A stretch of DNA of 64,000 nt, taken from an uncultured Candidatus Saccharibacteria bacterium. GTDB taxonomy: Bacteria > Patescibacteriota > Minisyncoccia > Phycocordibacterales > UBA1550. Made by a program: the position numbers and the translations under genes. The notes under the pieces were generated by a model that saw only the letters and a list, made by a program, of their open reading frames with translations, did no database searches and was not told where the DNA came from. Every line of letters begins with the position of its first letter. Position 1 is the stretch's first letter. The stretch lies in assembly GCA_964457625.1 (NCBI GenBank), contig CAYWES010000002.1, forward strand, positions 30,239 to 94,238, written 5' to 3'. Below, in pieces: positions 1-52,591 of this stretch.

Positions 1-543
1 ACCGTCGCGCGCGGAGACCTCATCACCGGACAGGGAGCAAGCGCGACGTGGACACGCCTGCCAAAAGGCACGGCAAACCAAGTCCTCAGTATGGATGCGA
101 CGGCGACAGATGTGGTATGGGCAAATCCGCCGGGATATGCTCTTGATGTACAGGCGCACAACTCAGGTCAACCGCTAGATTCATCAAGGTATTTTGGACA
201 GCTTCCGAAGGTACTACAAAGTACCGCGAATATAAGCAAGGTATATATTCCCAAATCGGGGACGATTAAACGAGCCGTTATCTATTCGTACGCAACAGGC
301 ACCGTAGGAACAGCCCAAGATTGGTCGATGTACATTCGTCTTTATGATAAGACAACAGAGACACTTATTCAAGAGACACTTATTCAGACCGTAGGACTTG
401 ACACCGCAGAACGTATTTGGCAAAACGATGCTCTTAATATAGCCGTCAATGCCGGAGATTATTTTGAAATCAGATCATTTCGCGCTGCCTCAGGTACGGC
501 ATCTAACAATATTATTTTTAGCGGTTATGTGTGGATAGAATAA
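1..543 (+). CDS. Hypothetical protein, 5'-truncated by the window edge
   Basis: The frame is open from nt 1 with no upstream stop, so the gene continues left of the window. No recognisable family. Contains an in-frame 15-bp tandem duplication (ETLIQ x2). Confidence 0.4.
   Translation, partial: TVARGDLITGQGASATWTRLPKGTANQVLSMDATATDVVWANPPGYALDVQAHNSGQPLDSSRYFGQLPKVLQSTANISKVYIPKSGTIKRAVIYSYATGTVGTAQDWSMYIRLYDKTTETLIQETLIQTVGLDTAERIWQNDALNIAVNAGDYFEIRSFRAASGTASNNIIFSGYVWIE
358..387 (+). repeat. Perfect in-frame 15-bp tandem duplication (GAGACACTTATTCAA/G x2)
   Basis: gagacacttattcaa gagacacttattcag, encoding ETLIQ-ETLIQ. Confidence 0.9.
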
Positions 544-554
544 TACTATCTCCT

Positions 555-1634: not shown

Positions 1635-1637
1635 TCT

Positions 1638-2627: not shown

Positions 2628-2733
2628 TACTCCGCATGTGGACAATACGCTTGTCTTTTGTGAGGAGAGTATTATAATAAAAAGATAGGTATCAAGTGCG
2701 CATTTATTTGAATAGTTAATTATTTATACCAAT

Positions 2734-3801
2734 ATGTTACAAAAAGTTCTTTCGAGTATGCGATTTGTGGGCAAAGCCACCGTTCTCGGTGTCTTTAGTA
2801 TCGTTTCGCTTGCTATGCCGTTTAGTTTTGTGAGCGCGGCATCCCTTACCAATCTTTCCAACACGATGTCGTCTGCAAAGATAAGCACCGCATCAAGTCA
2901 TGAGATTAGGTTTACGACACCGACTGGTGCATCGGATGATACCGACACCATCGTGATCACTTTTCCCGCGGACTTTGATTTCACCGGCAAGGACATTGCA
3001 AGCGTTACATTTACCCACGGTCCAGCAACAGGACTTGAAAACACCGAGGTTCTCGCGGCAGCACCATCAGCAACCGAATGGGGCGCGGTATTCTCAGGTA
3101 CTGAGGATCGCGTTCTTACACTCACCGCTCCTACGGACGGCGTCGGGGCGGCATCGCTTGACGCGAACCACAGAGTGATCATCAGCTATGATGACACCGA
3201 TTCTCTCAACCCTTCAACCCCAGGGTCATATCAAATAACCATCAACGGTACGTTTGGTGATGTAGGGTTCATTACCGTAAACATTTTGAGTGATGACCAA
3301 GTTTCTGTGAGCGCAACGGTGGATCAATCCCTCACCTTTAGCATCTCTGACAACACCATCGGCTTTGGCACCCTTTCCTCAGTAGCAGCACGCTATGCGA
3401 CAGGGGATACTACGGGCAGTGCATCAGAAGTGGAGGCGCACAACATTATCGTGGGTACCAACGCTTCAAACGGATACACCATGACACTCGCGGGTGAGAC
3501 CCTCACCTCGGGTCTCGACACCATTGACGCAATCGGTGCAGCCAACACCGCGTCTGCCACAGGGACCGAACAGTTTGGTCTCCGCATGACCGCAACGGAT
3601 GGTATAGGAGCTGTTTCCGCTCCCTATGCTGCCGCAGGATTCGCGTTTGATACCGCCTCCTTTCCTGACGAAGTAGCTTCCTCTGTCGGCGCGAGCGCAG
3701 ACACGACCTACTCCGTACGTTATCTTGCAAACATTGAATCAAACACAGAAGCAGGTGCCTACACCGCGGCTCTTACCTACGTAGCGACCGCAAACTTCTA
3801 A
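2734..3801 (+). CDS. Secreted surface protein, paralog B, carrying the shared C-terminal domain
   Basis: Signal peptide ending VSAAS. The C-terminal domain (LTFSISDNTIGFGTLSSVAARYATGDT...YVATANF) aligns with paralog A; most differences fall at synonymous positions. Confidence 0.55.
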   Translation: MLQKVLSSMRFVGKATVLGVFSIVSLAMPFSFVSAASLTNLSNTMSSAKISTASSHEIRFTTPTGASDDTDTIVITFPADFDFTGKDIASVTFTHGPATGLENTEVLAAAPSATEWGAVFSGTEDRVLTLTAPTDGVGAASLDANHRVIISYDDTDSLNPSTPGSYQITINGTFGDVGFITVNILSDDQVSVSATVDQSLTFSISDNTIGFGTLSSVAARYATGDTTGSASEVEAHNIIVGTNASNGYTMTLAGETLTSGLDTIDAIGAANTASATGTEQFGLRMTATDGIGAVSAPYAAAGFAFDTASFPDEVASSVGASADTTYSVRYLANIESNTEAGAYTAALTYVATANF

Positions 3802-3834
3802 GGTTGATTATTCATTTCGTTTCTTCTTACTCTC

Positions 3835-4815
3835 ATGAACTCTCTTCTCAAGACCTCTCTCTGGGCGATCGCTCTCTTTCTCGGGGGAGGCTTGGGTTCT
3901 GTATCGGCACTCACCATCTCTCCGGCAAAAATAGAAATCACGGGAGATCCGGGAACCACGCTTCATGGAGAGATAAAACTCTACAACGAGCAGACGGGAG
4001 CACGCACCTTCTTTGCTTCGTATGAAAACTTTGAGCCGATCGGAGAAGCGGGAACGCCGTATTTCGTGGGCGGAACAGAGGGTCTCGCGACGTGGATTGA
4101 TACGGAACGAAGTATCACCATCGCTTCGGGAGAAACACAGACAATTCCCTTCACCATCACCATTCCCACGGACGCAACTCCGGGAGGGCACTTCGGTGCA
4201 ATCTTTTGGGGAACTCAGAATCCTGAAAACAGAGGCGGGGGAGAGGTCTCTGTGGGTGCGAAACTCGGCGCACTTGTTCTCTTGAGAGTTTCGGGCGCTA
4301 TTGAGGAAAACGCGGGAATCTTGGACTTTGAAACAAAAGACAAGCAACGCTTTTTCAGTAGCCTTCCTGTGGCGTTTACCTACCGTGTAAACAATGCCGG
4401 CGGTGACCGTATCGTTCCTCGCGGAGACATACAGATCAAAAACTCTGTACGCTTTACCACGAGCAATCTTACTGCAAACAAAACCGAAGGAAACGTCCTT
4501 CCGGGAAGCGCGCGCAGGTTTGAAACCGTATGGGAATCCAAAGGAGAACACACTGAAGGAGGATTTTGGAATGGAGTGGTGCGAGAAGTACGAGATTTCC
4601 GTTTGGGCTGGTATACCGCTACCCTCGATCTTTCTTGGGGCGGAGCTCCGAATCAACGAGATACCTCTACGTACCACTTCTTCATTTTCCCATGGCATTT
4701 ACTCACGATAGTATTCTTGGGCGGTGGAGTACTCCTCTTCCTTGGAGGAAGGGGTCTCAAGAGCTATAACAAGCGCATTATTGGACGCGCACTCGCGCAA
4801 CAACAGAAACAATAG
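3835..4815 (+). CDS. Cell-surface protein with N-terminal signal peptide, beta-rich ectodomain and a C-terminal transmembrane anchor plus basic tail
   Basis: Signal peptide. The ISPAKIEITGDPG...EIKLYNE chaperone/Ig-like pattern. The C-terminal hydrophobic helix (LLTIVFLGGGVLLFLGG) is followed by KSYNKRIIGR. Confidence 0.55.
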   Translation: MNSLLKTSLWAIALFLGGGLGSVSALTISPAKIEITGDPGTTLHGEIKLYNEQTGARTFFASYENFEPIGEAGTPYFVGGTEGLATWIDTERSITIASGETQTIPFTITIPTDATPGGHFGAIFWGTQNPENRGGGEVSVGAKLGALVLLRVSGAIEENAGILDFETKDKQRFFSSLPVAFTYRVNNAGGDRIVPRGDIQIKNSVRFTTSNLTANKTEGNVLPGSARRFETVWESKGEHTEGGFWNGVVREVRDFRLGWYTATLDLSWGGAPNQRDTSTYHFFIFPWHLLTIVFLGGGVLLFLGGRGLKSYNKRIIGRALAQQQKQ

Positions 4816-4816
4816 T

Positions 4817-5863
4817 GTGGCACGCTTTTTGGCAAAGCTTGTTTTGTCGTTCCTGTGTTTCTTTATTTTTCCGATTGCCACGTCCGCGATGACAATCACG
4901 GTCTCTGCGCTTGTCCCCGGATGTGGAGATGGGATTAAAGGAGTGGGGGAGCAGTGTGATGGTACGGACTTTGGTGGTGCGTCATGCTCAACATATGGCT
5001 TTTCAGGGGGAACGATCTCGTGCAGTAGTGCGTGTACGGTGGTCACCAATGCATGTACGGCTCCTCCCGGTGGCGGAGGTGGAGGCGGTGGGGGCGGAGG
5101 AGGAGGTGGTGTAGTGTTTATCCCCTCAAGCAATGTCGTTACCACGGGCCTTGCCTTCCCGGGGGCGATTGTGAAGCTTCTCAAGGATGGTCAGCTCATG
5201 GCTACTACGGTCGCGGGGAGTGACGCGGGCTTCTCGCTCACCATCAGTAATGTCTCTACGGGTACGTATAATTTCTCGGTTGTCGCGGAAGACACGACCG
5301 GTCTCCATACGCCCATCTTCACCTTTCCGCTTTCTATCGTCTCGTCGACGACTACAAAGGTTGACGACCTCTTTCTTGCGCCCACCATCTTTCTTGATAA
5401 AACTCAAGTAAAGTACGGTGACGCGCTTATTGTGTCGGGAAAGACCGTACCCCATGCCGTAGTAACCATACAAATACAATCGCCCGCGGTCTCTACGCTG
5501 ACGATATCGTCAAATGCTCTGGGCGTATACGCGCACTCTCTCAATACGAGTCCGTTTGGACTCGGGCAACACAGTGTCGTCGTGAGCGCGACAAAAGACG
5601 AGCTCACGAGTAAGCCGTCCAGCACCAAAACATTTCTCATCGGTACGGAAAACGTGTTTGCGGATGTTCCGCAGGTCTCCTTTCTCAAAGGAGACCTCAA
5701 CAATGATGGACGGGTGAATCTCACGGACTTTTCTATTGCGGCATTTTGGTATCGAAAGCCTCTTACCGAAGCGTTTAAGGTCGTTGAATTTGAGCGCCTC
5801 AACGGTGATGGTGCCATCACGCTCGTAGACTTCAGTATTATGGCGTTTTATTGGACGGGGTAG
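4817..5863 (+). CDS. Secreted protein with a Cys-rich repeat, a poly-Gly linker, Ig-like domains and a C-terminal type-I dockerin
   Basis: GTG start immediately after the upstream stop, followed by a signal peptide (cleavage at ATSA|MT). The CGDGxxxxxEQCDG motif resembles myxococcal Cys-rich repeats. G14 linker. The C-terminus GDLNNDGRVNLTDFSI...LNGDGAITLVDFSI has a duplicated DxNxDGxVNxxD calcium-binding pattern. Confidence 0.6.
   Translation: MARFLAKLVLSFLCFFIFPIATSAMTITVSALVPGCGDGIKGVGEQCDGTDFGGASCSTYGFSGGTISCSSACTVVTNACTAPPGGGGGGGGGGGGGGVVFIPSSNVVTTGLAFPGAIVKLLKDGQLMATTVAGSDAGFSLTISNVSTGTYNFSVVAEDTTGLHTPIFTFPLSIVSSTTTKVDDLFLAPTIFLDKTQVKYGDALIVSGKTVPHAVVTIQIQSPAVSTLTISSNALGVYAHSLNTSPFGLGQHSVVVSATKDELTSKPSSTKTFLIGTENVFADVPQVSFLKGDLNNDGRVNLTDFSIAAFWYRKPLTEAFKVVEFERLNGDGAITLVDFSIMAFYWTG
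5684..5860 (+). repeat. Dockerin-coding segment, copy 1 of a dispersed direct repeat
   Basis: 177 bp aligning without gaps to 8573-8749. The 3' ~75 bp differ at a single position. Confidence 0.85.
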
Positions 5864-5884
5864 TCGTCGCGGAGTCGCGGGAGG

Positions 5885-8755
5885 ATGAACTTGTGGTATA
5901 ATATCTTCGTGAACACGATGAAAAGAAGTTTTTTGTTAATCAAACTATTCTCAATCGGATTTGTCTTTTCCCTTGCGTGGGCATTTTTTGTGTCCCCCAA
6001 CCTCTTTGCCGCGGGGGAGAGCTATACGGTGTGTCCCGTTGGTTGTGATTTTCTTACCTTAACGGACGCGCTTCTTGAGCCCGGAATCGGGGATGATACG
6101 ATTATCCTTACGGAAGACTATGTGTTTGTTGATCTTGATGAACAAGATAGCCTCAGTATCCCCGACGGTATTGCTATTGTGTGTGCTCCCGGGGCGGGGA
6201 AGCTGGGAGGAGCGACGGATACCGTGCTCATGTTTTTTGGTGGAGAGAATACTTCGTTTGAAGGATGCACGTTTGAAAATGTACAATTTGATATTTCGGG
6301 GAAATCGGGTTTCTCGTTTACGCATAATACATTTTCCCCTGACGCGCTGAGTGTCATGATACTCACCCACGCGACGGATGTGACTATTACGGACAATATT
6401 GATATTCAAAAAATCCAAATTCAGACCGCGGATGATGTGCTCATTGAAAATAATTCCTTCGCGTGTCGCTTTGAAAGTACCTGCCTTAATGCCGTCACTG
6501 CCGGGGCACCTGATCTTTCTGATGATGCGGACATCAGCAACAATCTCATCATTAGAAACAACACTATTGTTAATCACAAAAAAGACAATGGTGGTGATTG
6601 GGTGCATTTTTGGGGAGGACGAGATATTGAATTTACCGGCAATACGGTGTATTCAGCGGTGACGCTTGATGAGAATATCTATCTGACGGTCGTTACGGTG
6701 ACCGGCGCGCAGATTGAATTTCGCGACAATTTCATTATTACGCCGGAGAAAGACGGCGCGCAAACGAGCGCGACGTGGGCGTTCAATCTTCGTGTCCAGG
6801 AGTACGCCATTGATGTTCTCTTTGATCACAATACCATCCTCCATCGCAATACAATGTCGGGGGCTGATGGGAATGCGTGTTTCGGACTCTATGATCAAGG
6901 GGGCAACCCAAATCTCTCCGTTACGATAACCGCCACATACAATCTTTGTCACCAGGTGGGAACAACTCAGCGGGGGAGGGGTATTTATTTTTCTTACGAC
7001 ATAGGGAGCGTTAATCCTTCGTTGAATGATTCTTGGAATGGATTTTCAAATATTGCTACTCCAATTAGTGATGATGAGGGTATTATCACGACACTTGATG
7101 GAACTACGGTACTGCGCAACGCACTCTTGCGTCTCGAGGACCCGGACCCAAGCAACCACGGTATTCCAAACCCCGTAAGTACGTATCTTGATGTTAACGG
7201 CACCAATGATATTGGGGCGTGGAGTGGTGCTCGCGTTACAACGATTCTCGTAGACGATGGATGCGTTGTTGATTACACTACCTGCCATGGCAATGGGACA
7301 GATTTTCTTCGTCATGCTTTGCGTGATGGAGATACGGCATACCTTGCCGATGGTATATATAGCCCTGTGGTGATACAAGGGTTTGATAATATCTCTCTTG
7401 TTGGGTCTTCGGGTACGATTATTGATGCTTTGGGTGGCGGGTTTGGTTTGGTCCTTGAGAATATTTCCAATAGCTCGTTTCAAGGTATTCGCGTTGAGCA
7501 AGCATCCAGCACATCAACCACGCATACGATTACCATGCCGGGGCTCTCTATGGGAGGGACTGATTACACTGCGTTTCCCGGGTTTATTCTTTTGGGTAAC
7601 GACTGCAATGTGGACAATCTCCTCCTCCCCTCAACGCCGACTGATATATCAGGAGTCACGGGGGTTGGTACCGAGGATTTTGTACTTATGCTTATACACT
7701 TACCTCCGGGGATAGTTGACCCTGACAATGATGCCTATATCACCGCACTTGTGCGAACGAGCCTCATATCGGTCCCGGGGGATTTGACGACACTCTGCGG
7801 TATGCCAGAAAGCTTCATTGATGTATTCCTGAATCCAGGCTTTTCTCTGTCGGACGGAGTATATAATTTTAATGCTACTGATTTTACTGACGAAGGAATC
7901 ACAACAGTCGGTGGCGCTCCACTTCCTTCAATAACAACAGTCACACTCGACGGTATCGGACTCATTCTTGATAATGTAAGCAATACCACCTTTACGGATT
8001 TTGTTTCTACTGACAGTCGCAAGGGGGTAATCGTCCAAGGGGGAAGTGATGGGAATACATTTATTGATAGTGACCTCACGGGAAATACCACTGCTGATAT
8101 TCATAGTATAAGTACGGGGGATACCATATTGCATCAGACGCTTTTTACGCTCGCGAACACGCTCATTGATGATTCCGGAATCATTATTGTCTCTCAAGAC
8201 ATGCAAGTCCACGTCGAAGATTCACAGGGAGCTCCGCTTTCGGGAGCGCAGGTTACGTTTACTGACAAATCTTCCAACGTGACGGGGCCGCTCACGACCG
8301 ATGGAGCCGGGGATATTCCCATCACTTCCATTCCGCTCTACTTTTTGAATCAAGCAAACCCCACGAATCCTCTCGCTAACACCAACAATCCATATCAGGT
8401 GAGTGTGACGAAGGCTGGATATACTCCAAAGACCACGGGAGTCACCATTACCTCGGGAGTTCAGCTTCTCACGGTCGTTCTCGCTACGCAACCTTCTTCG
8501 GGTGGTACGACAACAGGGGGTGGCGGAGGGGTTTTCATTCCGGCACCGGTTGTTCCCGAACCTACGAGCTTCCTCAAAGGAGACCTCAATAATGACGGAC
8601 TTGTAAATCTCATAGACTTCTCCATCGCGGCGTTTTGGTATCGAAAATCTCTCAGTGACGCATTCAAAGTCGTGGAACTTGAACGTCTCAACGGTGATGG
8701 TGCCATCACGCTCGTAGACTTCAGTATCATGGCGTTTTATTGGACAAAGTCATAA
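5885..8755 (+). CDS. Large secreted parallel beta-helix protein with a CarboxypepD_reg-like domain and a C-terminal type-I dockerin
   Basis: N-terminal signal/anchor. Many NxS/T and IxxN repeats typical of right-handed beta-helix (PbH1) proteins. A VHVEDSQGAPLSGAQVTF...TKAGYTPK domain. Gly linker, then a dockerin nearly identical to that of 4817-5863. Confidence 0.65.
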   Translation: MNLWYNIFVNTMKRSFLLIKLFSIGFVFSLAWAFFVSPNLFAAGESYTVCPVGCDFLTLTDALLEPGIGDDTIILTEDYVFVDLDEQDSLSIPDGIAIVCAPGAGKLGGATDTVLMFFGGENTSFEGCTFENVQFDISGKSGFSFTHNTFSPDALSVMILTHATDVTITDNIDIQKIQIQTADDVLIENNSFACRFESTCLNAVTAGAPDLSDDADISNNLIIRNNTIVNHKKDNGGDWVHFWGGRDIEFTGNTVYSAVTLDENIYLTVVTVTGAQIEFRDNFIITPEKDGAQTSATWAFNLRVQEYAIDVLFDHNTILHRNTMSGADGNACFGLYDQGGNPNLSVTITATYNLCHQVGTTQRGRGIYFSYDIGSVNPSLNDSWNGFSNIATPISDDEGIITTLDGTTVLRNALLRLEDPDPSNHGIPNPVSTYLDVNGTNDIGAWSGARVTTILVDDGCVVDYTTCHGNGTDFLRHALRDGDTAYLADGIYSPVVIQGFDNISLVGSSGTIIDALGGGFGLVLENISNSSFQGIRVEQASSTSTTHTITMPGLSMGGTDYTAFPGFILLGNDCNVDNLLLPSTPTDISGVTGVGTEDFVLMLIHLPPGIVDPDNDAYITALVRTSLISVPGDLTTLCGMPESFIDVFLNPGFSLSDGVYNFNATDFTDEGITTVGGAPLPSITTVTLDGIGLILDNVSNTTFTDFVSTDSRKGVIVQGGSDGNTFIDSDLTGNTTADIHSISTGDTILHQTLFTLANTLIDDSGIIIVSQDMQVHVEDSQGAPLSGAQVTFTDKSSNVTGPLTTDGAGDIPITSIPLYFLNQANPTNPLANTNNPYQVSVTKAGYTPKTTGVTITSGVQLLTVVLATQPSSGGTTTGGGGGVFIPAPVVPEPTSFLKGDLNNDGLVNLIDFSIAAFWYRKSLSDAFKVVELERLNGDGAITLVDFSIMAFYWTKS
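8573..8749 (+). repeat. Dockerin-coding segment, copy 2 of a dispersed direct repeat
   Basis: See copy 1. About 83% identity overall, with a mosaic distribution of differences. Confidence 0.85.
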
Positions 8756-8764
8756 TGTACAACC

Positions 8765-9613
8765 ATGCGCATAATTAACACCGTATTCCTCATAGCATTT
8801 CTTTTCCCCGCATGGGCGCAGGCACTGGAGGTACGCCTTGAGACGCAGAAGGCATCTTTTCACAAAGGAGAACTCATCACGGTGGATGTATTTCTCGATG
8901 CCACGGATCCCGTAAATGTAATCTCGGCAAAACTCATATACCCGGAGAGACATCTTTCTTTGGGCGGGATCGTCGACGGAAGTTCGGCGGTTTCTCTTTG
9001 GATTGATCGACCAAAACGCACAAGCTCCGGGGAAATCTCGTTTTCCGGCATGACGCCCGGGGGGATTGAGGGGAAAGAGAACAAGGTGTTTTCTGCCACA
9101 TTTGTCGCGGATCGACCGGGAGACGTGGCGTTTGGTTTGATACAAGGGGAAGCGTTTCTTCATGATGGGCTTGGCTCCGCCCATCCTTTCGAGACGTCTC
9201 TCTCTATTTCTATCGATGCAGGAGAATCTTTGTCTCCGGAGGAAGGTACCTTCCTCGACACTATTCCTCCTGAGGATTTTTTCGTAACGCTTTCCCATGA
9301 TCCAAACCTTTTTGGAGGGAAATACTTCCTTGTGTTTACGACACAAGATAAAGAGTCAGGGATTGATCACTATAAAGTGCGTGAGGGTCGCTGGGGATTC
9401 TTCCGCACTGCGGAGAGCCCGTACCTTTTGCGCGATCAATCACCCACACATAGTATCAGCGTAAAAGCAGTAGATCGATTTGGTAATGAGCGCGTGGCGG
9501 TGTTTCATCCCGAACAGACTTCTTCATTGTGGGATGACATAAAAGGTCTTGTCGTGGTAGTATTACTAGTAAGCATAACAGGTATTATCCTATGGCGCAG
9601 ATATACAAAATAA
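8765..9613 (+). CDS. Membrane-anchored protein with a cohesin-like N-domain
   Basis: Signal peptide with AxA cleavage (AWAQA|LEV). The N-domain pattern EVRLETQKASFHKGELITVDVFLDATDPVNVISAKLIYPERHL matches a cohesin-type beta-sandwich. A second Ig/FN3-like domain, then a C-terminal TM helix and RRYTK tail. Confidence 0.5.
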   Translation: MRIINTVFLIAFLFPAWAQALEVRLETQKASFHKGELITVDVFLDATDPVNVISAKLIYPERHLSLGGIVDGSSAVSLWIDRPKRTSSGEISFSGMTPGGIEGKENKVFSATFVADRPGDVAFGLIQGEAFLHDGLGSAHPFETSLSISIDAGESLSPEEGTFLDTIPPEDFFVTLSHDPNLFGGKYFLVFTTQDKESGIDHYKVREGRWGFFRTAESPYLLRDQSPTHSISVKAVDRFGNERVAVFHPEQTSSLWDDIKGLVVVVLLVSITGIILWRRYTK

Positions 9614-9615
9614 TA

Positions 9616-10395
9616 ATGATAACGGGAGCGTTGTTCTTTGCTCCCCATGTGACGTTCGCGGCAAGCCTCTTCCTTTCTCCTGCTTCGGGAGTGCATGACG
9701 TCGGCACCACCTTTTCCGTCGTGGTTTCTGTGGGAAGTCCTTCTCAAGATATGAATGCCACATCGGGGGTCATTTCATTCCCCGTGGACGCACTTGAGGT
9801 TGTCTCGATATCTCGCACGAATTCAATCATCTCATTTTGGGTGCAAGAGCCTACTTTTTCAAACACGCAAGGTTCTATTTCTTTTGAAGGCGTCGCTCTC
9901 GATCAATCCTTCAGAGGTTCAAATGGGAGAATCTTTTCGGTAGTCTTTCGCGCAAAACAAGCAGGTACGGCAGGGGTGAGTTTCTCCTCGGGTTCGGTCT
10001 TGGCAAGTGACGGATTGGGGACGAACATTTTACAAACACTCTCTCCCGGCTCCTACGCCCTTGCGGTCCCTAAGCCACCAGTAGAACCTCCTCGCAGAGA
10101 AGAGCCAATCGTGGAGGAGCCTCTTGTAGAAACTCCAGAAGAGATTCCGGAAGAAACGCCTCCTTTGGTGGAAGAGATAGTGATTCCGGAGGAACCGGCA
10201 ATCTCAGAATACTTTATAGAACGAGCGCCTTGGTATCGTTTGGAAGTTCCCGTTTCAGTGGGTCTTCTCACGATAATCTTGCTTATCCTTCTCATCTCAA
10301 TCACCTTAAATGTCGTGTTTGGTTCCCACTACACGGCGCGAACGATTCATCATGTGAGAAAGAGACGCGTACGAACTCCGAAGAAGGACATCTAA
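9616..10395 (+). CDS. Membrane-anchored protein with a cohesin-like domain and a Pro/Glu-rich linker
   Basis: Signal peptide. LSPASGVHDVGTTFSVVVSV...ATSGVISFPVDALEVVSI closely matches a cohesin domain. A (P/E)-rich stalk, then a C-terminal TM helix and basic tail. Confidence 0.55.
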   Translation: MITGALFFAPHVTFAASLFLSPASGVHDVGTTFSVVVSVGSPSQDMNATSGVISFPVDALEVVSISRTNSIISFWVQEPTFSNTQGSISFEGVALDQSFRGSNGRIFSVVFRAKQAGTAGVSFSSGSVLASDGLGTNILQTLSPGSYALAVPKPPVEPPRREEPIVEEPLVETPEEIPEETPPLVEEIVIPEEPAISEYFIERAPWYRLEVPVSVGLLTIILLILLISITLNVVFGSHYTARTIHHVRKRRVRTPKKDI

Positions 10396-10481
10396 CTCGT
10401 TGCTGAAAAGGGGAGGGCTTCTGTCTGGACATACTTGTTCCTGCTTGGACTTTTTCCCAAAGCACCGTATACTCGGTTTAT

Positions 10482-11615
10482 ATGGCTACTTCAAAGCGCA
10501 AAAAGAACCCTCCTTTCTTTGTTACACGCCGTTTTTTGTTTGGTGCGGGGGTGTTTGGGGTTACAGTTTTTGCGGGGAGTAGTGTTCTTGATATGGGGAA
10601 GGTCACCTATGAGCGCGTGAATGGCGAACGTACGTCTGATGAGGAGGTGCTCCCAAATGTTCCGCGCTATAAATCCATTGATCCGGAGTGGTATGAAGAT
10701 CAGATGTTCTCTCTCTCAAACCTCCCTCCCATCCCCGTGGTATATGATCCTGAAACGGGAGAAGAGATTCCTCCCGCTCCTCGCGAACCGTCCCTGTGGC
10801 CGGTAACGCCTTTCGTATACCCTAATCCCGGTGCTGTCCTTCCCGAGCATCGCATTATCGCCTATTATGGAAATTTGTATTCCACCCGAATGGGAGCTCT
10901 CGGTGAATATCCCGAAGAGGAAATGAAGGCGCGACTCCTTGCCGAGGTAGAGCGATGGACCGAAGCAGATCCGGAGACTCCGGCGATTCCCGCGCTTCAT
11001 TATATTGTCACCACCGCACAGCTTGACCCGGGGGCTGATGGGAAACATCGTTTGCGCATGCCGTCGAGCCAGATTGATGAAGTTCTCCGTATGGCGGAGA
11101 GTATCGGCGCTCTCGTCTTTTTGGATATACAGGTTGGACTCTCTACGATTGAAGAAGAGCTTCCTCTCCTTGAAAAGTATCTTGCCCTCCCGCATGTGCA
11201 TTTGGGTATTGATCCTGAGTTTTCTATGAAGAGTCGCTCGCGCCCGGGGACTGAGGTTGGCACCTTTGACGCAAAAGATATGAACTTCGCGATAGCGTAC
11301 CTCTCGCGCCTTGTAGAGGAACACGCGTTGCCTCCAAAGGTTCTCGTGATTCATCGGTATACCGTGCCCATGCTTACAAACTCCGCCTCCATACAACCAA
11401 CGCCCGATGTTCAGGTGGTCATTCACATGGATGGATGGGGAGGACAGGCAAAGAAAAAAACCACCTATGAGATGGTCGTCGTCAGGGAACCGGTTCAATT
11501 TGCAGGGTTCAAGATTTTCTATAAACACGATATTCGTGATCCGGGCACCGTTCTCTTTGCGCCGGGAGATCTCCTCAAGCTTTCTCCCCGTCCCAGCTAT
11601 ATTCAATATCAATAG
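10482..11615 (+). CDS. Exported hypothetical protein with alternating beta/alpha segments, possibly a TIM-barrel glycoside-hydrolase-like fold
   Basis: N-terminal TM/signal anchor. Strand-like motifs RIIAYYGN, ALVFLDIQVG, HLGIDPEF, VLVIHRY and VVIHMDGWG. No confident family assignment. Confidence 0.45.
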   Translation: MATSKRKKNPPFFVTRRFLFGAGVFGVTVFAGSSVLDMGKVTYERVNGERTSDEEVLPNVPRYKSIDPEWYEDQMFSLSNLPPIPVVYDPETGEEIPPAPREPSLWPVTPFVYPNPGAVLPEHRIIAYYGNLYSTRMGALGEYPEEEMKARLLAEVERWTEADPETPAIPALHYIVTTAQLDPGADGKHRLRMPSSQIDEVLRMAESIGALVFLDIQVGLSTIEEELPLLEKYLALPHVHLGIDPEFSMKSRSRPGTEVGTFDAKDMNFAIAYLSRLVEEHALPPKVLVIHRYTVPMLTNSASIQPTPDVQVVIHMDGWGGQAKKKTTYEMVVVREPVQFAGFKIFYKHDIRDPGTVLFAPGDLLKLSPRPSYIQYQ

Positions 11616-29698: not shown

Positions 29699-29728
29699 TT
29701 GACAAATGCAACTCAGTTGCGTTAAGAT
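29699..29728 (+). promoter_or_regulatory. Putative fur promoter with an embedded inverted repeat GCAACT-c-AGTTGC
   Basis: TTGACA at 29699-29704. The perfect 6-1-6 inverted repeat at 29708-29720 sits in the spacer. TAAGAT follows, with the ATG at 29735. Confidence 0.35.
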
Positions 29729-35260: not shown

Positions 35261-35333
35261 GCCACTTTAGCTCAGTTGGTAGAGCAACGCTTTTGTAAAG
35301 CGAAGGTCCCCAGTTCAAGTCTGGGAAGTGGCT
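35261..35333 (+). tRNA. tRNA-Thr (anticodon UGU)
   Basis: Hand-folded cloverleaf: perfect 7-bp acceptor stem GCCACTT/AAGTGGC, anticodon loop UUUGUAA, T-loop TTCAAGT, no encoded CCA. Confidence 0.85.
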
Positions 35334-35377
35334 CCCGTTCGCAAAACTCCCACCAAACATCTAATCTCCGCGAGACT

Positions 35378-35475
35378 CCGCAAGGTGTTTTCAACTGCAC
35401 GCATATTTTTCTGCTGAAAAATTGCTCCGCTCGGACCAGTCGTCCTGCGACGAGGCACTTGAAAACACCTTGTCT
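35378..35475 (+). other. Conserved structured intergenic element, copy B, enclosed by a 14-bp long-range stem
   Basis: CAAGGTGTTTTCAA (35381-35394) pairs perfectly with TTGAAAACACCTTG (35459-35472). These arms enclose the shared core and internal hairpins. Lies between tRNA-Thr and the serpin promoter module. Confidence 0.4.
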
Positions 35476-35532
35476 TCGTCTCCCTGAACTACATAGGGTT
35501 ACCCTATGTAGATACCCTATGTAGAAGAAAAA

Positions 35533-35567
35533 TTGACAATCCCACGGGGGGGGGGGGGTTTTATATA
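35533..35567 (+). promoter_or_regulatory. Promoter-like module: TTGACA, 23-nt spacer containing a G13 tract, then TATATA, immediately before the serpin ATG
   Basis: TTGACA at 35533-35538, G13 at 35546-35558, TATATA at 35562-35567, ATG at 35572. Confidence 0.45.
35546..35558. repeat. G13 homopolymer tract
   Basis: Thirteen consecutive G, read directly from the sequence. Confidence 0.95.
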
Positions 35568-35571
35568 TATC

Positions 35572-36852
35572 ATGTCACAAAAATCATTTCCCTGGGCTAA
35601 ATTATTCTTGAGCATCTTTTTGGTTTTGCTTGTTGCGGTTATCGGACGAGGTCTATGGGCGTATTACAAGGTTCAGGTTGTGGTACAAGAGGCGGTGCCC
35701 ACACCTCCTCTTGTACCACCTACCGCAAGCATCCCGAGTCATATCGTGGAAGCGCATACCACCTTTGGATTTAATGTTTTGAAATCTCTTGCCTCTACAT
35801 CTGAAGACAACATCTTTATCTCGCCATCAAGTATCGCGCTCGCGCTTTCTATGCTTTATAACGGCGCACGCGGTGCTACTCAGGATGCTATGGCAAAAAC
35901 TCTCGCTCTCGAGGGAATAGATCTCAAGACCCTGAATCAGGAAAGTTTGGGACTCATTAATACGCTCAATAATCCTGAGATGGGAGTTGAGCTTGCTATT
36001 GCAAATTCAGTTTGGGCGCGTGAAGGAGTGTCGTTTGAGAAAGACTTTCTTGATGGTGTCGTTCAGTACTTCCACGCAGAGCTTGCAACTCTTGATTTTA
36101 GAAATGAGCAGGCGGCTAACACGATTAATGCATGGGTGAATAAAAACACAAAAGGAAAAATCCCTGGAATCATTCAACCGCCTATTCCCGCAGACATGAT
36201 GATGTACCTCATTAATGCTGTGTACTTCAAGGGTTCGTGGACCACTCCTTTTGATAAGGGCGATACTCGTGTTGCGCAATTTACCAACGGAGACAAAACT
36301 GTACAACAGATCCCGTTTATGTATCGCGGGGGTTTTATGCCTTATTTCGAAACAGCGGATTTTCAGAGTGTCATGTTACCATATGGGCCGTCTGGCCAAC
36401 CTCCGCTCGTGAGCATGTATGTGTTTTTGCCCAAAAAGTCACTTGCGGATTTTGTATCCACCTTGGACAAAGCCGTGTGGGACATATGGATGAATTCATA
36501 AAGAGGGGAGAGGGGTACACTCTTGTTGCCTAAATTTAAGCTCGAATACGTGACGGAGCTTCGCCCTGTCCTCGGTATTCTTGGTATGGATATTGCGTTT
36601 ACGAATGGTGCTGACTTAGGAGGTCTTGCTCAAGGACTTTCTATCAGTAGTGTGCTACACAAAACATATGTTGATGTTAACGAAGAAGGTACGGAGGCTG
36701 CTGCCGTGACGGCTGTTAGTGTCGGGGCAACGTCTGTTAATCTCGACCCGCCAAAGGAATTTTATATGAATGTGAATCAGCCATTCTTTGTTGCGATTCG
36801 TGAGAACACAACGGGAGAGATTCTATTTACGGGACTTATTCAGAAGCCGTAA
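35572..36852 (+). pseudogene. Serpin (serine protease inhibitor) with an N-terminal membrane anchor, interrupted by one in-frame TAA at 36499-36501
   Basis: Serpin hallmarks: IFISPSSIALALSMLYNGARG, the hinge/reactive-centre loop GTEAAAVTAVSVGATS and the C-terminal NQPFFVAIRE. The two track ORFs (35533-36501 and 36523-36852) share one frame and are separated only by the TAA. Confidence 0.6.
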
Positions 36853-36930
36853 TAGACCTTGAATGGTGGGGGGCTATACACAAAAAACCATGGTAGCAAT
36901 GCCGTGGTTTTTTGTGTATGATGGTCCTAC

Positions 36931-37677: not shown

Positions 37678-40050
37678 ATGAACATCCCCATTTCCTACAA
37701 CTGGCTCAAATCTCATTTTGAGAAAGAGATCCCTTCTCCCGAGGAGATTTCGCGTCTTTTTATGCTACACCTCTGCGAGGTTGAAGGTATGGAGAAAAAA
37801 GGGAGCGACACGATTTTTGATCTCAAGATTCTCCCTGATCGTGGGCATGATCTCCTCGCACATCGCGGGATTGCGCGCGAGGTCTCAGTGCTCGCGGGTA
37901 TCCCACTCCGCCCTCTTCCGAGCGCTCCCGATGTACGCGGTGTCACTACTCCTCTCCGCGTGACGGTAGAGGATTCTCAGAGGTGTCCGCGCTACATGGG
38001 GCGTGTTATTTCCGGTATTACGGTGGGAGAATCTCCCACATGGCTCAAAGAGCGCCTTGAGTCCGTCGGACAGCGTTCAATCAATACTATTGTTGATGTC
38101 ACAAACTTCGTCATGCTTGAGCTCGGACAGCCGATGCACGCATTTGATGGAAGCAATATTGAAAAGCGTGATGGTGCATATGAGATTGCCGTGCGCGGGG
38201 CGCAAGAAGGTGAGACCATGACTACACTTGATGGAAAAAATCTTGTCCTTACATCCGACACGCTTGTGATTGCGGATTCCGCTCGCGTGCTCGCGCTTGC
38301 GGGGATCAAAGGGGGGAAGGCGGCGGAGGTTGGGTCTTCTGCAGACACGATCATTCTTGAGTCGGCAAACTTCAATGCCGTAACCACCCGTCGTACGAGC
38401 GCGCGTGTAGGTATTCGTACTGATTCATCAAAGCGCTTTGAACATGAGCTTTCGCCCGCGCTCGCCGAGCAGGCGATGGATCTTGCAAGCGCACTCATCC
38501 TCGAGCTTTGTCCTCGTGCAGAGCTGGGGGAAGTGGTGGATGTTTGCGCTCAGTCGCCAAAGCAGTACAAGGTTGGTATTTCTCTTTCGGAGCTGAACGG
38601 GATTTTAGGCTCATCGTTTGAGAAAAAAGAAGTAGAAGACCTTCTCATGCGGATTGGTTTTGAATACACTGTCGTACCTAATCCTCTTCAATTTGTACTC
38701 GCAGAGGCACCAAAGCAAGCAGGGAAAGCATATCGCCTTGATGCAAGCGTTCTCCATGATGCGCCCGAAACATTTGATTGCTCAAGTTTGGTGGCGTACC
38801 TTTGGAAAGAAGCGGGAGTCTCCCTACCGCGCATGTCGGTGGATCAGATGGTGTTTGGAGATCCTGTCGAAGAATCAGACATGAAGCCGAGCGATTTGGT
38901 ATTTTCAAACAGTGAAGAAGGTGCGATTTTTTATGAATCACAGGAATGGATGCCCGGGACGCCCGTACCCGAAGGCATTGATCATGTGGGAATCTACCTC
39001 GGTGATGACAAAATCATTCACGCATCACGCTACAACGAACACGGCGTTGAGATACAGACTCTTTCAGGTAACCCAATCTTTAAAAAAATCGTAGGGATTC
39101 GTCGTGTCGCTCATGCTGATGAAGAGCGTTTTGTGATTACTATTCCCCTTGAGCGCCTGGACTTGCGTATCAAAGAAGATATTGCAGAGGAGATTGGTCG
39201 CGTGTACGGATTTCATAATATCCCTCCCGCACCGCTTCCTGAGCTTTCTTTTATCCCGAGCCATCTCAAGGCATACTACTACGCGGGCAAGATTCGCGAT
39301 GCACTCGTCACCGCAGGGTTCTCAGAAGTCTTTACCTATTCGTTCCAAAACACAGGCGCATTTGCCGTGGAAAATCCGATAGCAGAGGACAAGGGCTTCT
39401 TGAGAAAAGACCTCGCCACGGGAATCCGCGACGCACTCGTGATGAACGCGCGTCATGCACCCCTTCTCGCACGGGATGACATCAAGATTTTTGAAATAGG
39501 AGCCGTGTACCCCGGAGTAATGGAAGAAAAGCTCTCCTGTGCTATCGGCGTGGAGCTCACCAAGCAGGGAAAGAAAAAAACCGAGCTCACGCGTGCTGAG
39601 CTTGAGAATGCGCAAAAGATAGTGAGTGAAGTACTCGGCGTATCGTTGGATGGGGTATTTACCGAAAACACGTTTGAGTTTGAGTTCGGCGCGCTTCTCG
39701 CGAATCTGCCTGAGATACCTCCTCAGGAGAAAGGATTTGTTTCCGCAGACACGCGCTACACAAAAATCTCCGCGTATCCCTTTGTCCTCCGCGATATTGC
39801 TCTCTGGGTACCTGAGCACGTCTCAAGCGATGACATTGTGACGCTCATTCGGGAGGAGGGAAGCGAGCTCCTCAAAGTGGTGCGCCTCTTTGATGTGTTT
39901 ACCAAGGAATTCCCCGAAGGCAAAAAGACCTCCTATGCATTTAATTTGGTCTTTCAGTCACACGAAAAAACACTCTCCGATGATGAGGTAAACGCTATCA
40001 TGGAGCGCGTCACGCATCGTCTCACCGCCAAAGAATACACCGTGCGCTAA
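37678..40050 (+). CDS. pheT: Phenylalanyl-tRNA synthetase beta subunit with an inserted NlpC/P60-like domain
   Basis: B1, B3/B4, B5, B6/7 and C-terminal FDX-ACB-like regions are recognisable. Residues ~345-476 match NlpC/P60 (DCSSLVAYLW...PSDLVFS...HVGIYLGDDKIIHAS). Confidence 0.9.
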   Translation: MNIPISYNWLKSHFEKEIPSPEEISRLFMLHLCEVEGMEKKGSDTIFDLKILPDRGHDLLAHRGIAREVSVLAGIPLRPLPSAPDVRGVTTPLRVTVEDSQRCPRYMGRVISGITVGESPTWLKERLESVGQRSINTIVDVTNFVMLELGQPMHAFDGSNIEKRDGAYEIAVRGAQEGETMTTLDGKNLVLTSDTLVIADSARVLALAGIKGGKAAEVGSSADTIILESANFNAVTTRRTSARVGIRTDSSKRFEHELSPALAEQAMDLASALILELCPRAELGEVVDVCAQSPKQYKVGISLSELNGILGSSFEKKEVEDLLMRIGFEYTVVPNPLQFVLAEAPKQAGKAYRLDASVLHDAPETFDCSSLVAYLWKEAGVSLPRMSVDQMVFGDPVEESDMKPSDLVFSNSEEGAIFYESQEWMPGTPVPEGIDHVGIYLGDDKIIHASRYNEHGVEIQTLSGNPIFKKIVGIRRVAHADEERFVITIPLERLDLRIKEDIAEEIGRVYGFHNIPPAPLPELSFIPSHLKAYYYAGKIRDALVTAGFSEVFTYSFQNTGAFAVENPIAEDKGFLRKDLATGIRDALVMNARHAPLLARDDIKIFEIGAVYPGVMEEKLSCAIGVELTKQGKKKTELTRAELENAQKIVSEVLGVSLDGVFTENTFEFEFGALLANLPEIPPQEKGFVSADTRYTKISAYPFVLRDIALWVPEHVSSDDIVTLIREEGSELLKVVRLFDVFTKEFPEGKKTSYAFNLVFQSHEKTLSDDEVNAIMERVTHRLTAKEYTVR

Positions 40051-40056
40051 GTCTCT

Positions 40057-40602
40057 ATGATTATTTCTACTCCGTATTACTCTCAATATCTGGATGTGGG
40101 AGATTCTTTTTGGAAAGAGCGGACATGCGCGATTGCGTGCGCAAAGATACTCATTGAGACTGCGGGAGGAAGCGCGCCGGGGCTTGATGTGATGACGATG
40201 CGCGGGATTGAGCTTGAAGCGTATGATCCGCGGTTTGGCTGGATTCATGACGGACTCATTCGCCTTGCGGAAGAGTATGGCACGACGCTTACGCGCAAAG
40301 AATGGCGGACAAAAGAAGATGAAAAGGCGCTCAAAGAGAATCTCAATCAAGAGGGAATTGCATTTTTAATTGAAACACTCAACACAGGGCGCCCCCTCGC
40401 AATATCCACGATTCGCACCTTCACCGAGCAAGAGACATTTCATATGGTGGTCCTCGTGGGATATGAGGAAGGGATAGAGGGAATCGGGGGCTTTTACTAT
40501 CACGACCCGGATGCGCATACGCGCGAGGACGGGATGAACCGTTTTGTTGATATTCAGACCTTCAAAAACTCTTGGCGTTGTATGGCTATTTTTGCCCCAT
40601 AA
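40057..40602 (+). CDS. Peptidase C39-like (C39_2/BtrH-like papain-fold) protein
   Basis: YYSQ...C nucleophile context (TCAIACAK), the His motif HMVVLVGYEE and YYHDP. No signal peptide. Confidence 0.55.
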   Translation: MIISTPYYSQYLDVGDSFWKERTCAIACAKILIETAGGSAPGLDVMTMRGIELEAYDPRFGWIHDGLIRLAEEYGTTLTRKEWRTKEDEKALKENLNQEGIAFLIETLNTGRPLAISTIRTFTEQETFHMVVLVGYEEGIEGIGGFYYHDPDAHTREDGMNRFVDIQTFKNSWRCMAIFAP

Positions 40603-43219: not shown

Positions 43220-43252
43220 GATCCTTTTTTAGCATCAGTACATGATGTACGG

Positions 43253-43290
43253 AAAGCGGGCGAGACCGAAGGTCTCGCCCGCTTTCTCTT
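43253..43290 (+). terminator. Rho-independent terminator
   Basis: AAAGCGGGCGAGACC-GAA-GGTCTCGCCCGCTTT (15-bp perfect stem) followed by a T-rich run. Confidence 0.8.
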
Positions 43291-43299
43291 TCCCCCATA

Positions 43300-43331
43300 T
43301 TGACATTCGTATGGGGGGGGGGGGCTATGAT
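43300..43331 (+). promoter_or_regulatory. Promoter-like module: TTGACA, 20-nt spacer containing a G12 tract, then TATGAT, immediately before the membrane-protein ATG
   Basis: TTGACA at 43300-43305, G12 at 43313-43324, TATGAT at 43326-43331, ATG at 43338. Same architecture and flanks (ATTGACAnTCnnAnG-Gn) as the module at 35533. Confidence 0.45.
43313..43324. repeat. G12 homopolymer tract
   Basis: Twelve consecutive G, read directly from the sequence. Confidence 0.95.
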
Positions 43332-43337
43332 GTTAGG

Positions 43338-44159
43338 ATGAATGAACAAAAAGTTGAAAAGGGCGGTAGTAAGGACTTAGCGTGGTTAATGTTGGTTATT
43401 TTTTCTTTGATTGCTGCTTCTCGTGCGCTTGATTTCGAACTATCTCACCCATTAGTTGTCCCTTCTGGGCTTTCTTTTATGGGGCACTCAACGGTTTTCA
43501 TTGTTTTATCTCTTGTTCTTGCTCTTATTTTTTATTCAGTACCGAGGAAATTATTTAGTAAAAGCAAGGTATCCTTGTTTGATTATAATACAATTGTCGT
43601 TGCCTGTATTTTCTTGGTGCTATTATCTCTAGCCCAGTCGCAACCTTCATATAAACAACAATATCGTGGGAGTAGCCTAAATCAAACTCACTCGGAGCGA
43701 ATAGTTTCAGAAGATGTATATCGCAGTGACCAATATGGGTTTGAAATTAAATTTCCTAAAAATTGGGAAGTTCACACTGATACTAGGTATCCAGGGATAG
43801 AAGCTTTTTCTCCAGATACCACCACAAGCATACGCATAGCATCTGTGGATTTTTCTCATGAGGATATTTCTTCCATAAAAGACCTGGGACCGGTGAGCTT
43901 TGTATCAAGAATGATTGCTGCAACCATAGAAGAAGAAGGATCTAGTAATGTTAGAATCATTAATTATGGAGAAAGGAAAGTTAATGACGCACCAGCTTAC
44001 TGGACAGAAGTTTCTTTTTATGGCGGAACACTACTCGCTTACTCTATTTATGAAAAAAATAAATTTTACCAAATTGTTGGTTCCGTAACTCAAGGTGGGA
44101 GGTATGAAGACATAAAAAAGGATTTTGTGGACGTATTCTCAACTTTCCGTGTTCTTTAG
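43338..44159 (+). CDS. Membrane protein with a C-terminal extracytoplasmic domain, hypothetical
   Basis: Three predicted TM helices. AT-rich coding sequence. A G12 tract and a TTGACA element lie immediately upstream. Confidence 0.5.
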   Translation: MNEQKVEKGGSKDLAWLMLVIFSLIAASRALDFELSHPLVVPSGLSFMGHSTVFIVLSLVLALIFYSVPRKLFSKSKVSLFDYNTIVVACIFLVLLSLAQSQPSYKQQYRGSSLNQTHSERIVSEDVYRSDQYGFEIKFPKNWEVHTDTRYPGIEAFSPDTTTSIRIASVDFSHEDISSIKDLGPVSFVSRMIAATIEEEGSSNVRIINYGERKVNDAPAYWTEVSFYGGTLLAYSIYEKNKFYQIVGSVTQGGRYEDIKKDFVDVFSTFRVL

Positions 44160-44173
44160 ATAACGCCGACATT

Positions 44174-44728
44174 ATGAGAAACATCTGTGACGTTGAGAGT
44201 GAGATTATCGACCAAATACTAATTAGCGAGACTTGTTTTGATGTTTGTAAGGAGATTCCTATATTAAGTGGAAGAGGAAGTGACTTTTTACCATTTTACT
44301 ATAATCTGAGCCTTTCTAAGGGGATTCTCTTGCTCAACAGCTTATTGGTTACACCAAGAGATGACGAACTATCTATAAGATATTTCCTGAATCTCTATAA
44401 GCAAACACATCCAGCTAAGGATTTAAAAGAGATTGAGGCGAAGATAGATACTCTCAGGCTCTCTTTTAAGACTATGTATCCAGTGTCGCTAAGACATAAG
44501 ATGGTCGCCCATCTTGATGACAAGTTTAAACATGGAGATTTTACATGTGCATATCTTGTCCCTGAATCTCTTGAAAAATTTAGAGAAATTACAAAGGATC
44601 TAAAAGAGGTTATTTTTACTATTACAAATTTTTCTATAGATTATCCTCATCACGCGAATATAATGAGACAAACGAAAATTATAGTTGAGCAAATTCTAAA
44701 GGAATCTGAAGAGCGACTTTCGCTATAA
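44174..44728 (+). CDS. Hypothetical alpha-helical protein with a possible HEPN-like Rx5H motif
   Basis: AT-rich ORF containing RHKMVAH. No confident family. Confidence 0.4.
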   Translation: MRNICDVESEIIDQILISETCFDVCKEIPILSGRGSDFLPFYYNLSLSKGILLLNSLLVTPRDDELSIRYFLNLYKQTHPAKDLKEIEAKIDTLRLSFKTMYPVSLRHKMVAHLDDKFKHGDFTCAYLVPESLEKFREITKDLKEVIFTITNFSIDYPHHANIMRQTKIIVEQILKESEERLSL

Positions 44729-44731
44729 GGG

Positions 44732-51688: not shown

Positions 51689-52591
51689 ATGGCAAATAGA
51701 CACCTTTCCCGAAGTATCGTCATGCAGACTCTCTACGAATGGGATTTTCGCGGAGGAAATCTGACATCACTTGAGGTAGAGCAGGCGCTCGCGCGCAATG
51801 TTCAAGAATTTGCTCCAGGGTCAAATGATATGTCTTTTATGCGCCCTCTCCTCCTCGGCATCATTGAGAAGCGCCCAAAGCTTGATACCATTATTGAAAA
51901 GGCAGCCCCTGATTGGCCACTTGAAAAGATTGCGCTCGTTGACCGAAACATTCTCCGCGTAGGGTTGTATGAACTTCTCTTTGAGGATCGCGCGGTGGTA
52001 CCCGCAAAAGTTGCCATCAACGAAGCGATTGAACTCGCGAAAACATACGGAGGAGAGACGAGCGGTAAGTTTGTAAACGGAGTGCTCGGTGCGGTCTACA
52101 AGGAGCTCGGTGAGCCCGGTAAAGAAGAGACGAGCAAAAAGAAACACAAGGAAGTCATTGACCCTAAAACTCTCCCGCTCGAGCGCCTTGGGGGAGCGGT
52201 AGTCTTTGCGCGGGCGGACGAGGAAGTATACCTCGCGCTCGTGCATGATATCTTTGGTCACTGGACCCTTTCCAAAGGACACTTTCAAGAGGGGGAAGAG
52301 GATAAAGATGCTATCGTGCGCATCGTGGCTGAGGAGATAGGATTGCCGGTAAAGCCTCTGGATCTTTTGGGAGAGAATGAATACGTGGCGTCACATCCCG
52401 AAAAGGGAAAGCTTCGCAAGCATGTGAGCTATTTCCTCGCCGAGGCTCCGTATCAGGAGGTGGAGCTTCTCAAAAAAGGAGGTCTCGATGATGTGCGCTG
52501 GTTTAGGCTCGCGGACATTCTTGACCTCAAAATGTATGACGACATGGTACCCGTCATTACGAAAGCCGTAAATATATTGCTCAAAAAATAA
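51689..52591 (+). CDS. nusB: Transcription antitermination factor NusB fused to a C-terminal Nudix-like domain
   Basis: NusB motifs (QTLYEWDF, DRNILRVGLYELLF) in residues 1-150. The C-terminal ~140 aa carry a Nudix-box-like GHWTLSKGHFQEGEEDKDAIVRIVAEEIGL. Confidence 0.75.
   Translation: MANRHLSRSIVMQTLYEWDFRGGNLTSLEVEQALARNVQEFAPGSNDMSFMRPLLLGIIEKRPKLDTIIEKAAPDWPLEKIALVDRNILRVGLYELLFEDRAVVPAKVAINEAIELAKTYGGETSGKFVNGVLGAVYKELGEPGKEETSKKKHKEVIDPKTLPLERLGGAVVFARADEEVYLALVHDIFGHWTLSKGHFQEGEEDKDAIVRIVAEEIGLPVKPLDLLGENEYVASHPEKGKLRKHVSYFLAEAPYQEVELLKKGGLDDVRWFRLADILDLKMYDDMVPVITKAVNILLKK

Follow-up and report, generated by a model that had tools for sequence, protein, structure and literature searches.

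Two promoters in a 64-kb window of a Patescibacteria genome, i.e., the whole stretch of 64,000 nucleotides of contig CAYWES010000002.1 (assembly GCA_964457625.1) that was analyzed here, carry an uninterrupted run of G residues between their -35 and -10 hexamers. One of them (site 1), with a G13 tract, precedes a gene for a serpin with an N-terminal transmembrane anchor, and the other (site 2), with a G12 tract, precedes a gene for a three-transmembrane protein with an extracytoplasmic PsbP-like domain (Table 1). Phase variation of the two promoters seems plausible, with indirect support from a second assembly of the strain and from similar modules in metagenomes, and we lean towards the view that both are length-sensitive and hypermutable. 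The host appears to be a Yonathbacteria-like member of the Patescibacteria, as its GyrB shares 80-87% identity with proteins that bear the names Candidatus Yonathbacteria, Paceibacterota or Patescibacteria, and searches with PheT and the serpin agree with this. The genes of the window are ordinary chromosomal ones (dnaE, thrS, hisS, ftsA/Z, gyrB, pheST, smc, rnr, rnc, fur, ddl, and atpB).

At site 1, TTGACA is followed by ATCCCAC (7 nt), G13, TTTTATATATATC, and the ATG at 35572; at site 2, the order is TTGACA, TTCGTAT (7 nt), G12, C, TATGAT, GTTAGG, and the ATG at 43338. A mononucleotide tract of at least about 8 nt is therefore placed between recognizable -35 and -10 hexamers at both sites, and both tracts end 0-3 nt before a -10-like hexamer with a leaderless ATG beyond it. 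An earlier note on this DNA had described a G homopolymer between -35 and -10 of the serpin promoter (site 1), with a near-leaderless transcript, and a recurrence of the same module at 43300-43340. The geometry proposed for site 1 is correct and the recurrence is confirmed, the second tract being G12 and not G13. If TATATA is taken as -10 of site 1, it is also true that TTGACA is followed by a 23-nt spacer holding 13 consecutive G; the gap between TATATA and the serpin ATG, given as 5 nt, is in fact 4 nt (TATC). A second -10 register, TTTTAT at 35559-35564, was missed in that note; it directly abuts the tract, and the ATG follows after 7 nt. This register is more likely the functional one (spacer of 20 nt in the window and of 19 nt in contig L224 from a second assembly), because the substitution T35560A in L224 converts it to TATTAT, a -10 used elsewhere in the genome (in the window at 14826 and upstream of 51689). 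The suggestion that loss of 4-6 G would restore an optimal spacer probably does not hold up, since TATATA with its 23-nt spacer is unlikely to be the -10 in use and, with a spacer of 19-20 nt, a loss of only 1-3 G would be needed.

In a scan of all homopolymers in the window, no G or C run besides G13 and G12 exceeds 6 nt, and the absence of further long G tracts is borne out by it. Runs of exactly 6 nt comprise five of G and two of C, and none has a length of 7-11. According to our own arithmetic, about 0.005 runs of 12 nt or more are expected from base composition. The two strands of the window together hold 16 copies of TTGACA, and exactly 7 nt separate each tract from the copy that precedes it, a placement with a chance of about 1e-4 per tract by the same kind of estimate. 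The earlier claim that both promoters control exported proteins is acceptable if "exported" is read as "cell-envelope" (a transmembrane-anchored serpin and a three-transmembrane PsbP-like protein), and at both sites the controlled genes would belong to those acting at the surface or in host interaction, with a topology predicted from sequence only.

Many genes of the window possess a -10 hexamer 5-8 nt before their ATG (e.g., at 26679, 29735, 31836, 36931, and 51689), and in most recognizable promoters of the window the -10 lies close to the start codon in the absence of a Shine-Dalgarno sequence. Most messenger RNAs of this genome therefore seem to be leaderless. Window promoters with a perfect -35 have spacers of 17-18 nt (TTGACA-17-TATTAT at 14803 and TTGACA-18-TAAGAT at 29699), and the two G-tract promoters match the usual promoter design of this genome save for their longer spacers.

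We propose that each of the two gene cassettes would be transcribed from its own sigma-70-type leaderless promoter, in which the spacer consists mostly of the tract and tract length would therefore set the -35/-10 distance. A strong terminator before site 2 and a terminator after the serpin gene argue for stand-alone promoters with untranscribed tracts; leaderless starts would likewise leave the tracts untranscribed, by which mechanisms at the RNA level would be excluded. Slipped-strand mispairing at replication would alter the tract by one G, i.e., 1 nt of spacer, per event, and promoter strength would thereby change heritably and reversibly, with a peak at a spacer of 17-18 nt, for which site 1 would need G10-G11 and site 2 G9-G10. 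As assembled, both sites have 20 nt between -35 and -10 (23 nt in the TATATA register of site 1), a distance above the optimum, and the assembled majority would be in a low or OFF state. The outcome would be a population heterogeneous for two envelope proteins.

TABLE 1. Features of the two poly-G promoters, their cassettes, and the contigs of the second assembly (positions are those of the window).
Feature	Position	Strand	Remarks
tRNA-Thr (TGT)	35261-35335	+	Left border of serpin cassette
Long hairpin, 18-nt arms and 56-nt loop	35381-35472	+	Inside structured tRNA-to-promoter spacer
Three copies of 11-mer ACCCTATGTAG	35489-35524	+	One inverted, two tandem at 13-nt period
-35 hexamer TTGACA, site 1	35533-35538	+	Sequence
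G13 homopolymer in promoter spacer, site 1	35546-35558	+	Sequence; G12 in Logan contig L224
-10 region, site 1	35559-35567	+	TTTTAT register 35559-35564, spacer 20; TATATA register 35562-35567, spacer 23
Serpin gene with N-terminal transmembrane anchor, leaderless ATG	35572-36852	+	Pfam E=6e-67
Intrinsic terminator of serpin unit	36882-36913	+	pheS extended -10 and ATG directly 3'
Perfect 16-bp hairpin terminator after LiaF-like gene	43252-43295	+	Hairpin at 43252-43286; directly 5' of promoter 2
-35 hexamer TTGACA, site 2	43300-43305	+	Sequence
G12 homopolymer in promoter spacer, site 2	43313-43324	+	G12 also in L224; L226 begins with G11
-10 hexamer TATGAT, site 2	43326-43331	+	Spacer 20; 6 nt before ATG
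Three-transmembrane protein, extracytoplasmic PsbP-like domain	43338-44159	+	Pfam E=2e-8; GC 37%; remote homologues only
Open reading frame of 184 amino acids	44174-44728	+	GC 35%
Logan contig L225	25287-35425		0 differences
Logan contig L224	35546-43334		2 differences
Logan contig L226	43314-44734		0 differences

The arrangement fits a known kind of phase-variable promoter, namely that of porA from Neisseria meningitidis and tp0126 from Treponema pallidum, in which a poly-G tract lies between -35 and -10 with an optimum of 17 nt (PMC7864442). In porA, as in the window, a G homopolymer fills the sigma-70 promoter spacer of a surface-protein gene, and tract length, through spacing, sets the level of transcription (PMC7864442). 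In contrast, loss of G makes the porA spacer too short, whereas the state assembled here is too long (20 nt); the tracts of the window are also longer (12-13), their predicted transcripts are leaderless, their host is an uncultivated member of the Patescibacteria, and they are known from sequence alone. The promoter of tp0126, which encodes an OmpW homologue, carries poly-G in its -35/-10 spacer as well, and the original annotation took the tract into an over-long open reading frame (ORF), as does a public call of 305 amino acids at site 2 (PMC7864442). However, within-isolate length variation and reporter activity were measured for tp0126, whereas the likeness seen here is one of geometry, and the gene content differs. 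Variable poly-G tracts are also found in promoters of the outer-membrane protein genes tprE/G/J/L of T. pallidum, where 8 G or fewer are permissive and where the tracts are situated near the transcription start site or overlap the -10 without changing the -35/-10 spacing (PMC7864442); in the window, the tract is situated within the spacer. Full-text literature searches turned up nothing about phase variation or homopolymer tracts for Patescibacteria or the Candidate Phyla Radiation (CPR). Contingency genes of the Campylobacter jejuni type possess intragenic G tracts of similar length that are tied to surface-structure genes. Such tracts are coding and act by frameshift, whereas the tracts described here lie 5' of the most plausible start codons.

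By means of an identical GyrB, a Logan assembly made independently from run SRR16797977 was found, and three of its contigs were recovered; a literature search on this run returned no paper. In 19.3 kb, Logan contigs and window differ at two positions, with no difference over 11.6 kb in L225 and L226 and two over 7.8 kb in L224. Both differences are found at site 1, where L224 starts with C-G12-TATTATATATATCATG vs. C-G13-TTTTATATATATCATG in the window. The second one is T35560A, 2 nt past the tract, and the layout in L224 becomes TTGACA-19-TATTAT-7-ATG with TATTAT directly after the tract. Tract length in two assemblies of one strain is thus G13 vs. G12 at site 1 and G12 in both at site 2. The Logan contigs end at both tracts and leave a gap at 35426-35545.

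A scan of public collections for TTGACA-N7-G10 yielded 16 viral and at least 120 metagenomic matches, and a locus-specific metagenome pattern allowing G7-G19 yielded 0 matches. Among the matches listed, to which all counts of this class refer, 15 of 119 non-redundant ones (12.6%) have TAnnnT directly 3' of the tract vs. 1.6% at control positions, and a match to TATAAT of at least 5/6 is present in 13 of 119 vs. 0.8% in the control. The 27 module-like matches have spacers of 17 (5), 18 (8), 19 (3), 20 (6), 21 (1), and 24 (4) nt, tract length ranges from G10 to G21 across the class, and the downstream genes are mostly lipoprotein, signal-peptide or prepilin-like. In four of five homologue groups with diverged flanks, tract length differs. 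Two homologous pairs with flanks 93-95% identical and a lipoprotein downstream have G17 (L153, spacer 24) vs. G11 (L191, spacer 18) and G12 (L174) vs. G16 (L212), respectively. Among the many metagenomic carriers of TTGACA-N3-7-G10-21-TATAAT are L153/L191, L174/L212, L117, L118, L135, L142, L169, L176, and L209. As in the window, the -10 abuts the tract and envelope or secreted proteins are encoded downstream in L153/L191, L174/L212, L117, L118, L142, and L176; unlike in the window, the metagenomic modules mostly have ordinary Shine-Dalgarno leaders and belong to organisms of higher GC, and none is homologous to the cassettes of the window. To judge from these matches, the module is a recurrent and evolutionarily labile way to drive envelope proteins, and its metagenomic members look like a widespread candidate class of contingency promoters.

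The two sites of the window do not seem to be in the same condition. An in-frame TAA at 36499-36501, which went unmentioned in the earlier note, splits the serpin gene into ORFs of 309 and 109 amino acids. It is situated where, in an alignment of six Patescibacteria serpins, a Tyr (WMKQY) is invariant, and it must be considered real because the independent contig L224 carries it too. The serpin domain (PF00079) with its reactive-centre loop is thus split by the TAA and not full-length. Since everything besides the TAA is intact, including the inhibitory-type hinge EEGTEAAAVT in the downstream fragment, the inactivation is recent. By its sequence, the serpin is a pseudogene or truncated. Because of this nonsense codon and of the -10 in the window haplotype, which is devoid of its key A, site 1 would be no more than a switch in decay, whereas the intact example would be site 2. 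The serpin transcription unit is monocistronic with its own terminator, and the nearest homologue of its product is 61% identical. At least two of the other serpin loci in Patescibacteria (L082 and L219/L220) adjoin tRNA genes, which hints at a mobile serpin cassette.

Comparison with the relatives L227 and L228 (84-87% GyrB identity) indicates that both cassettes are accessory. These relatives keep a backbone of pheS, pheT, a gene for a C39-like peptidase, gyrB, and convergent thrS, and L228 keeps the LiaF-like gene as well, but both cassettes are absent from them. In L228, pheS directly follows tRNA-Thr and thrS directly follows the LiaF terminator, and the insertions span 35336-36915 (serpin, between tRNA-Thr and pheS) and 43296-44731 (PsbP-like gene and 184-amino-acid ORF, between LiaF terminator and thrS). 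Such a comparison with related genomes, for which the earlier note had asked, disclosed no G or C run of 7 nt or more in 35 kb of L227 and L228. GC is 37% for the PsbP-like gene (29% at third codon positions, GC3), 35% for the 184-amino-acid ORF, and 46% for the serpin gene vs. about 50% for the backbone (GC3 52-58%). Both cassettes look horizontally acquired and lineage-specific; a search for flanking direct repeats (att-like) around either of them found only short chance matches. The 184-amino-acid ORF is probably co-transcribed with the PsbP-like gene. It has no Pfam, PADLOC or NCBIfam match, and its AlphaFold model, made without alignment, has a mean predicted local distance difference test score of 44 and is unusable. 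PADLOC and NCBIfam returned no family for the cassette proteins, and in exact look-ups neither the serpin nor PheS nor the 305-amino-acid PsbP-like call had an identical protein on record. In a scan of a genome collection with PheT, relatives among the matches listed reach at most 47% identity and none has poly-G.

Several observations weigh against length-dependent switching of the two promoters. Many promoters of this genome possess no good -35, and transcription may therefore depend little on spacer length, in which case the tracts would work as a dimmer and not as a switch. Site 1 drives a pseudogene. The putative heterogeneity of tract length in the population is based on a comparison of two assemblies, and G12 vs. 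G13 could be an error of homopolymer calling. The contig breaks at both tracts were rejected as proof of heterogeneity and are weak evidence because breaks at poly-G are generic; of the 120 metagenomic matches listed, 36 (30%) lie at most 100 nt from a contig end vs. 3.6% expected. In the module class, three of three groups with 100% identical flanks share an identical tract length. No poly-G was found upstream of serpin homologues in five other Patescibacteria, and protein, genome-collection, and metagenome searches did not find an orthologous locus for comparing the tract. The main rival reading is that of a static or decaying relic, in which the G tracts came with the acquired cassettes, the promoters are weak or dead, no adaptive, reversible switching occurs, and the cassettes are being lost. 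The serpin nonsense codon, TTTTAT instead of TATTAT as -10 in the window, two supra-optimal spacers of at least 20 nt, the foreign GC of cassettes that are absent from relatives, and the fact that the PsbP-like protein is nearly an orphan with remote homologues only, all speak in its favor. However, the same precise architecture is found in two independent cassettes, the genes at site 2 are intact, tracts of G12-13 are intrinsically unstable and can hardly fail to vary somewhat in length, with effects on the promoter, and the module class is enriched before surface proteins and varies between strains. On balance, we consider a relic unlikely.

Three other explanations seem still less probable than a relic. 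If the tracts were coding, changes in length would cause frameshifts, as they do in contingency genes of Campylobacter. For the PsbP-like protein, the public gene call indeed comprises 305 amino acids from an ATG at 43242 and translates G12 in frame as GGGG, and the tract of site 1 is in frame with a TTG at 35533. However, the upstream extension of 32 codons (43242-43337) runs through the perfect 16-bp terminator hairpin and has no homologue; the sole match below 1e-30 is the protein itself, and matches from other genomes cover the query from residue 17 onward, downstream of the ATG at 43338. At site 1, the sole upstream start is the TTG of the -35 itself, and the public serpin call begins at the ATG at 35572. 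As -35 and -10 hexamers flank both tracts and tp0126 of T. pallidum had been misannotated likewise (PMC7864442), the 305-amino-acid call is a probable over-extension through a chance open frame; at neither site was the tract found to lie inside a translated ORF, and translational switching is very improbable. We give slightly more credit, though still little, to the idea that the G run is bound by a regulator or adopts a non-B structure and tunes the promoter independently of its length. The offset of the tract from the -35 is the same at both sites, spacer bases are partly shared (TTGACAnTCnnAnG...), and an operator-like triple repeat of the 11-mer lies just 5' of site 1. This array, a candidate operator, ends 8 nt 5' of the -35 of site 1 and occurs nowhere else in the window, site 2 included; second G-run partners for an intramolecular quadruplex are absent, and the large variability of tract length in the module class (G10-G21) argues against a recognition site of fixed length. 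Poly-G is a known class of sequencing artefact, and the tracts might be explained by two-color Illumina chemistry or a chimeric join, as the share of listed poly-G matches at contig ends might suggest. Yet both tracts are internal and flanked by promoter hexamers, they were recovered in a second independent assembly, and the flanking backbone from pheS to thrS follows the gene order of the relatives, which makes an artefact the least credible of all these explanations.

Patescibacteria are ultra-small, and many of them live attached to host cells. To our knowledge, next to nothing has been learned about the ways in which they vary their surface. A broader proposal, which we put forward only tentatively and hold to be rather doubtful, is that promoters with a poly-G spacer form a contingency module that is portable, moves together with small cassettes for surface proteins, and operates in episymbionts of the Patescibacteria (CPR). 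On this reading, such promoters would provide stochastic and heritable variation of host-facing envelope proteins in bacteria with tiny genomes, they would constitute the first phase variation by simple sequence repeats described in the CPR, and they would belong to a far broader and perhaps uncatalogued class in metagenomes that is situated before lipoprotein and pilin-like genes. Switching tracts would mark accessory envelope proteins under fluctuating selection, in this case a protease inhibitor and a PsbP-fold membrane protein, and TTGACA, a few nt, at least 10 G, and TATAAT would be a signature for mining contingency loci in uncultivated bacteria. With regard to annotation, gene callers take such tracts into over-long ORFs, as in the 305-amino-acid call, and assemblers break contigs at them.

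Some further features of the window and of other genomes deserve mention. The 197-nt stretch between tRNA-Thr and the promoter of site 1 (35336-35532) has an inverted repeat of 18 nt at the core of a very stable predicted fold (-64.7 kcal/mol, z=-6.7). An Rfam scan identified only tRNAs in the window, and the stretch between tRNA and promoter gave sub-threshold noise and no family. The idea that the inverted repeat at 35381-35472 delimits an invertible segment is unsupported, as the Logan contig break at 35425 lies off any repeat boundary. In the Patescibacteria metagenome-assembled genome GCA_039738235.1 (38% GC), contig L081 carries an in-frame G12 (VGGGGLP; 3703-3714, minus strand) close to the 5' end of the gene for threonyl-tRNA synthetase, i.e., a hypermutable run inside an essential gene. 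Large genes at 531-11615 of the window, with weak or no Pfam matches (beta-helix, Big_6, dockerin-like, and cohesin-like) and no homopolymer tracts, probably encode surface or adhesion proteins. PheT (37678-40050) carries an insert of the NlpC/P60 peptidoglycan-hydrolase family at residues 363-476, and the gene for the C39-like peptidase follows at 40057-40602; this arrangement is kept in L224, L227, and L228 and in PheT matches at 42-47% identity. Finally, NusB is fused to a NUDIX hydrolase domain at 51689-52591, and the fusion is kept in the closest relative (L227, 18543-19412).

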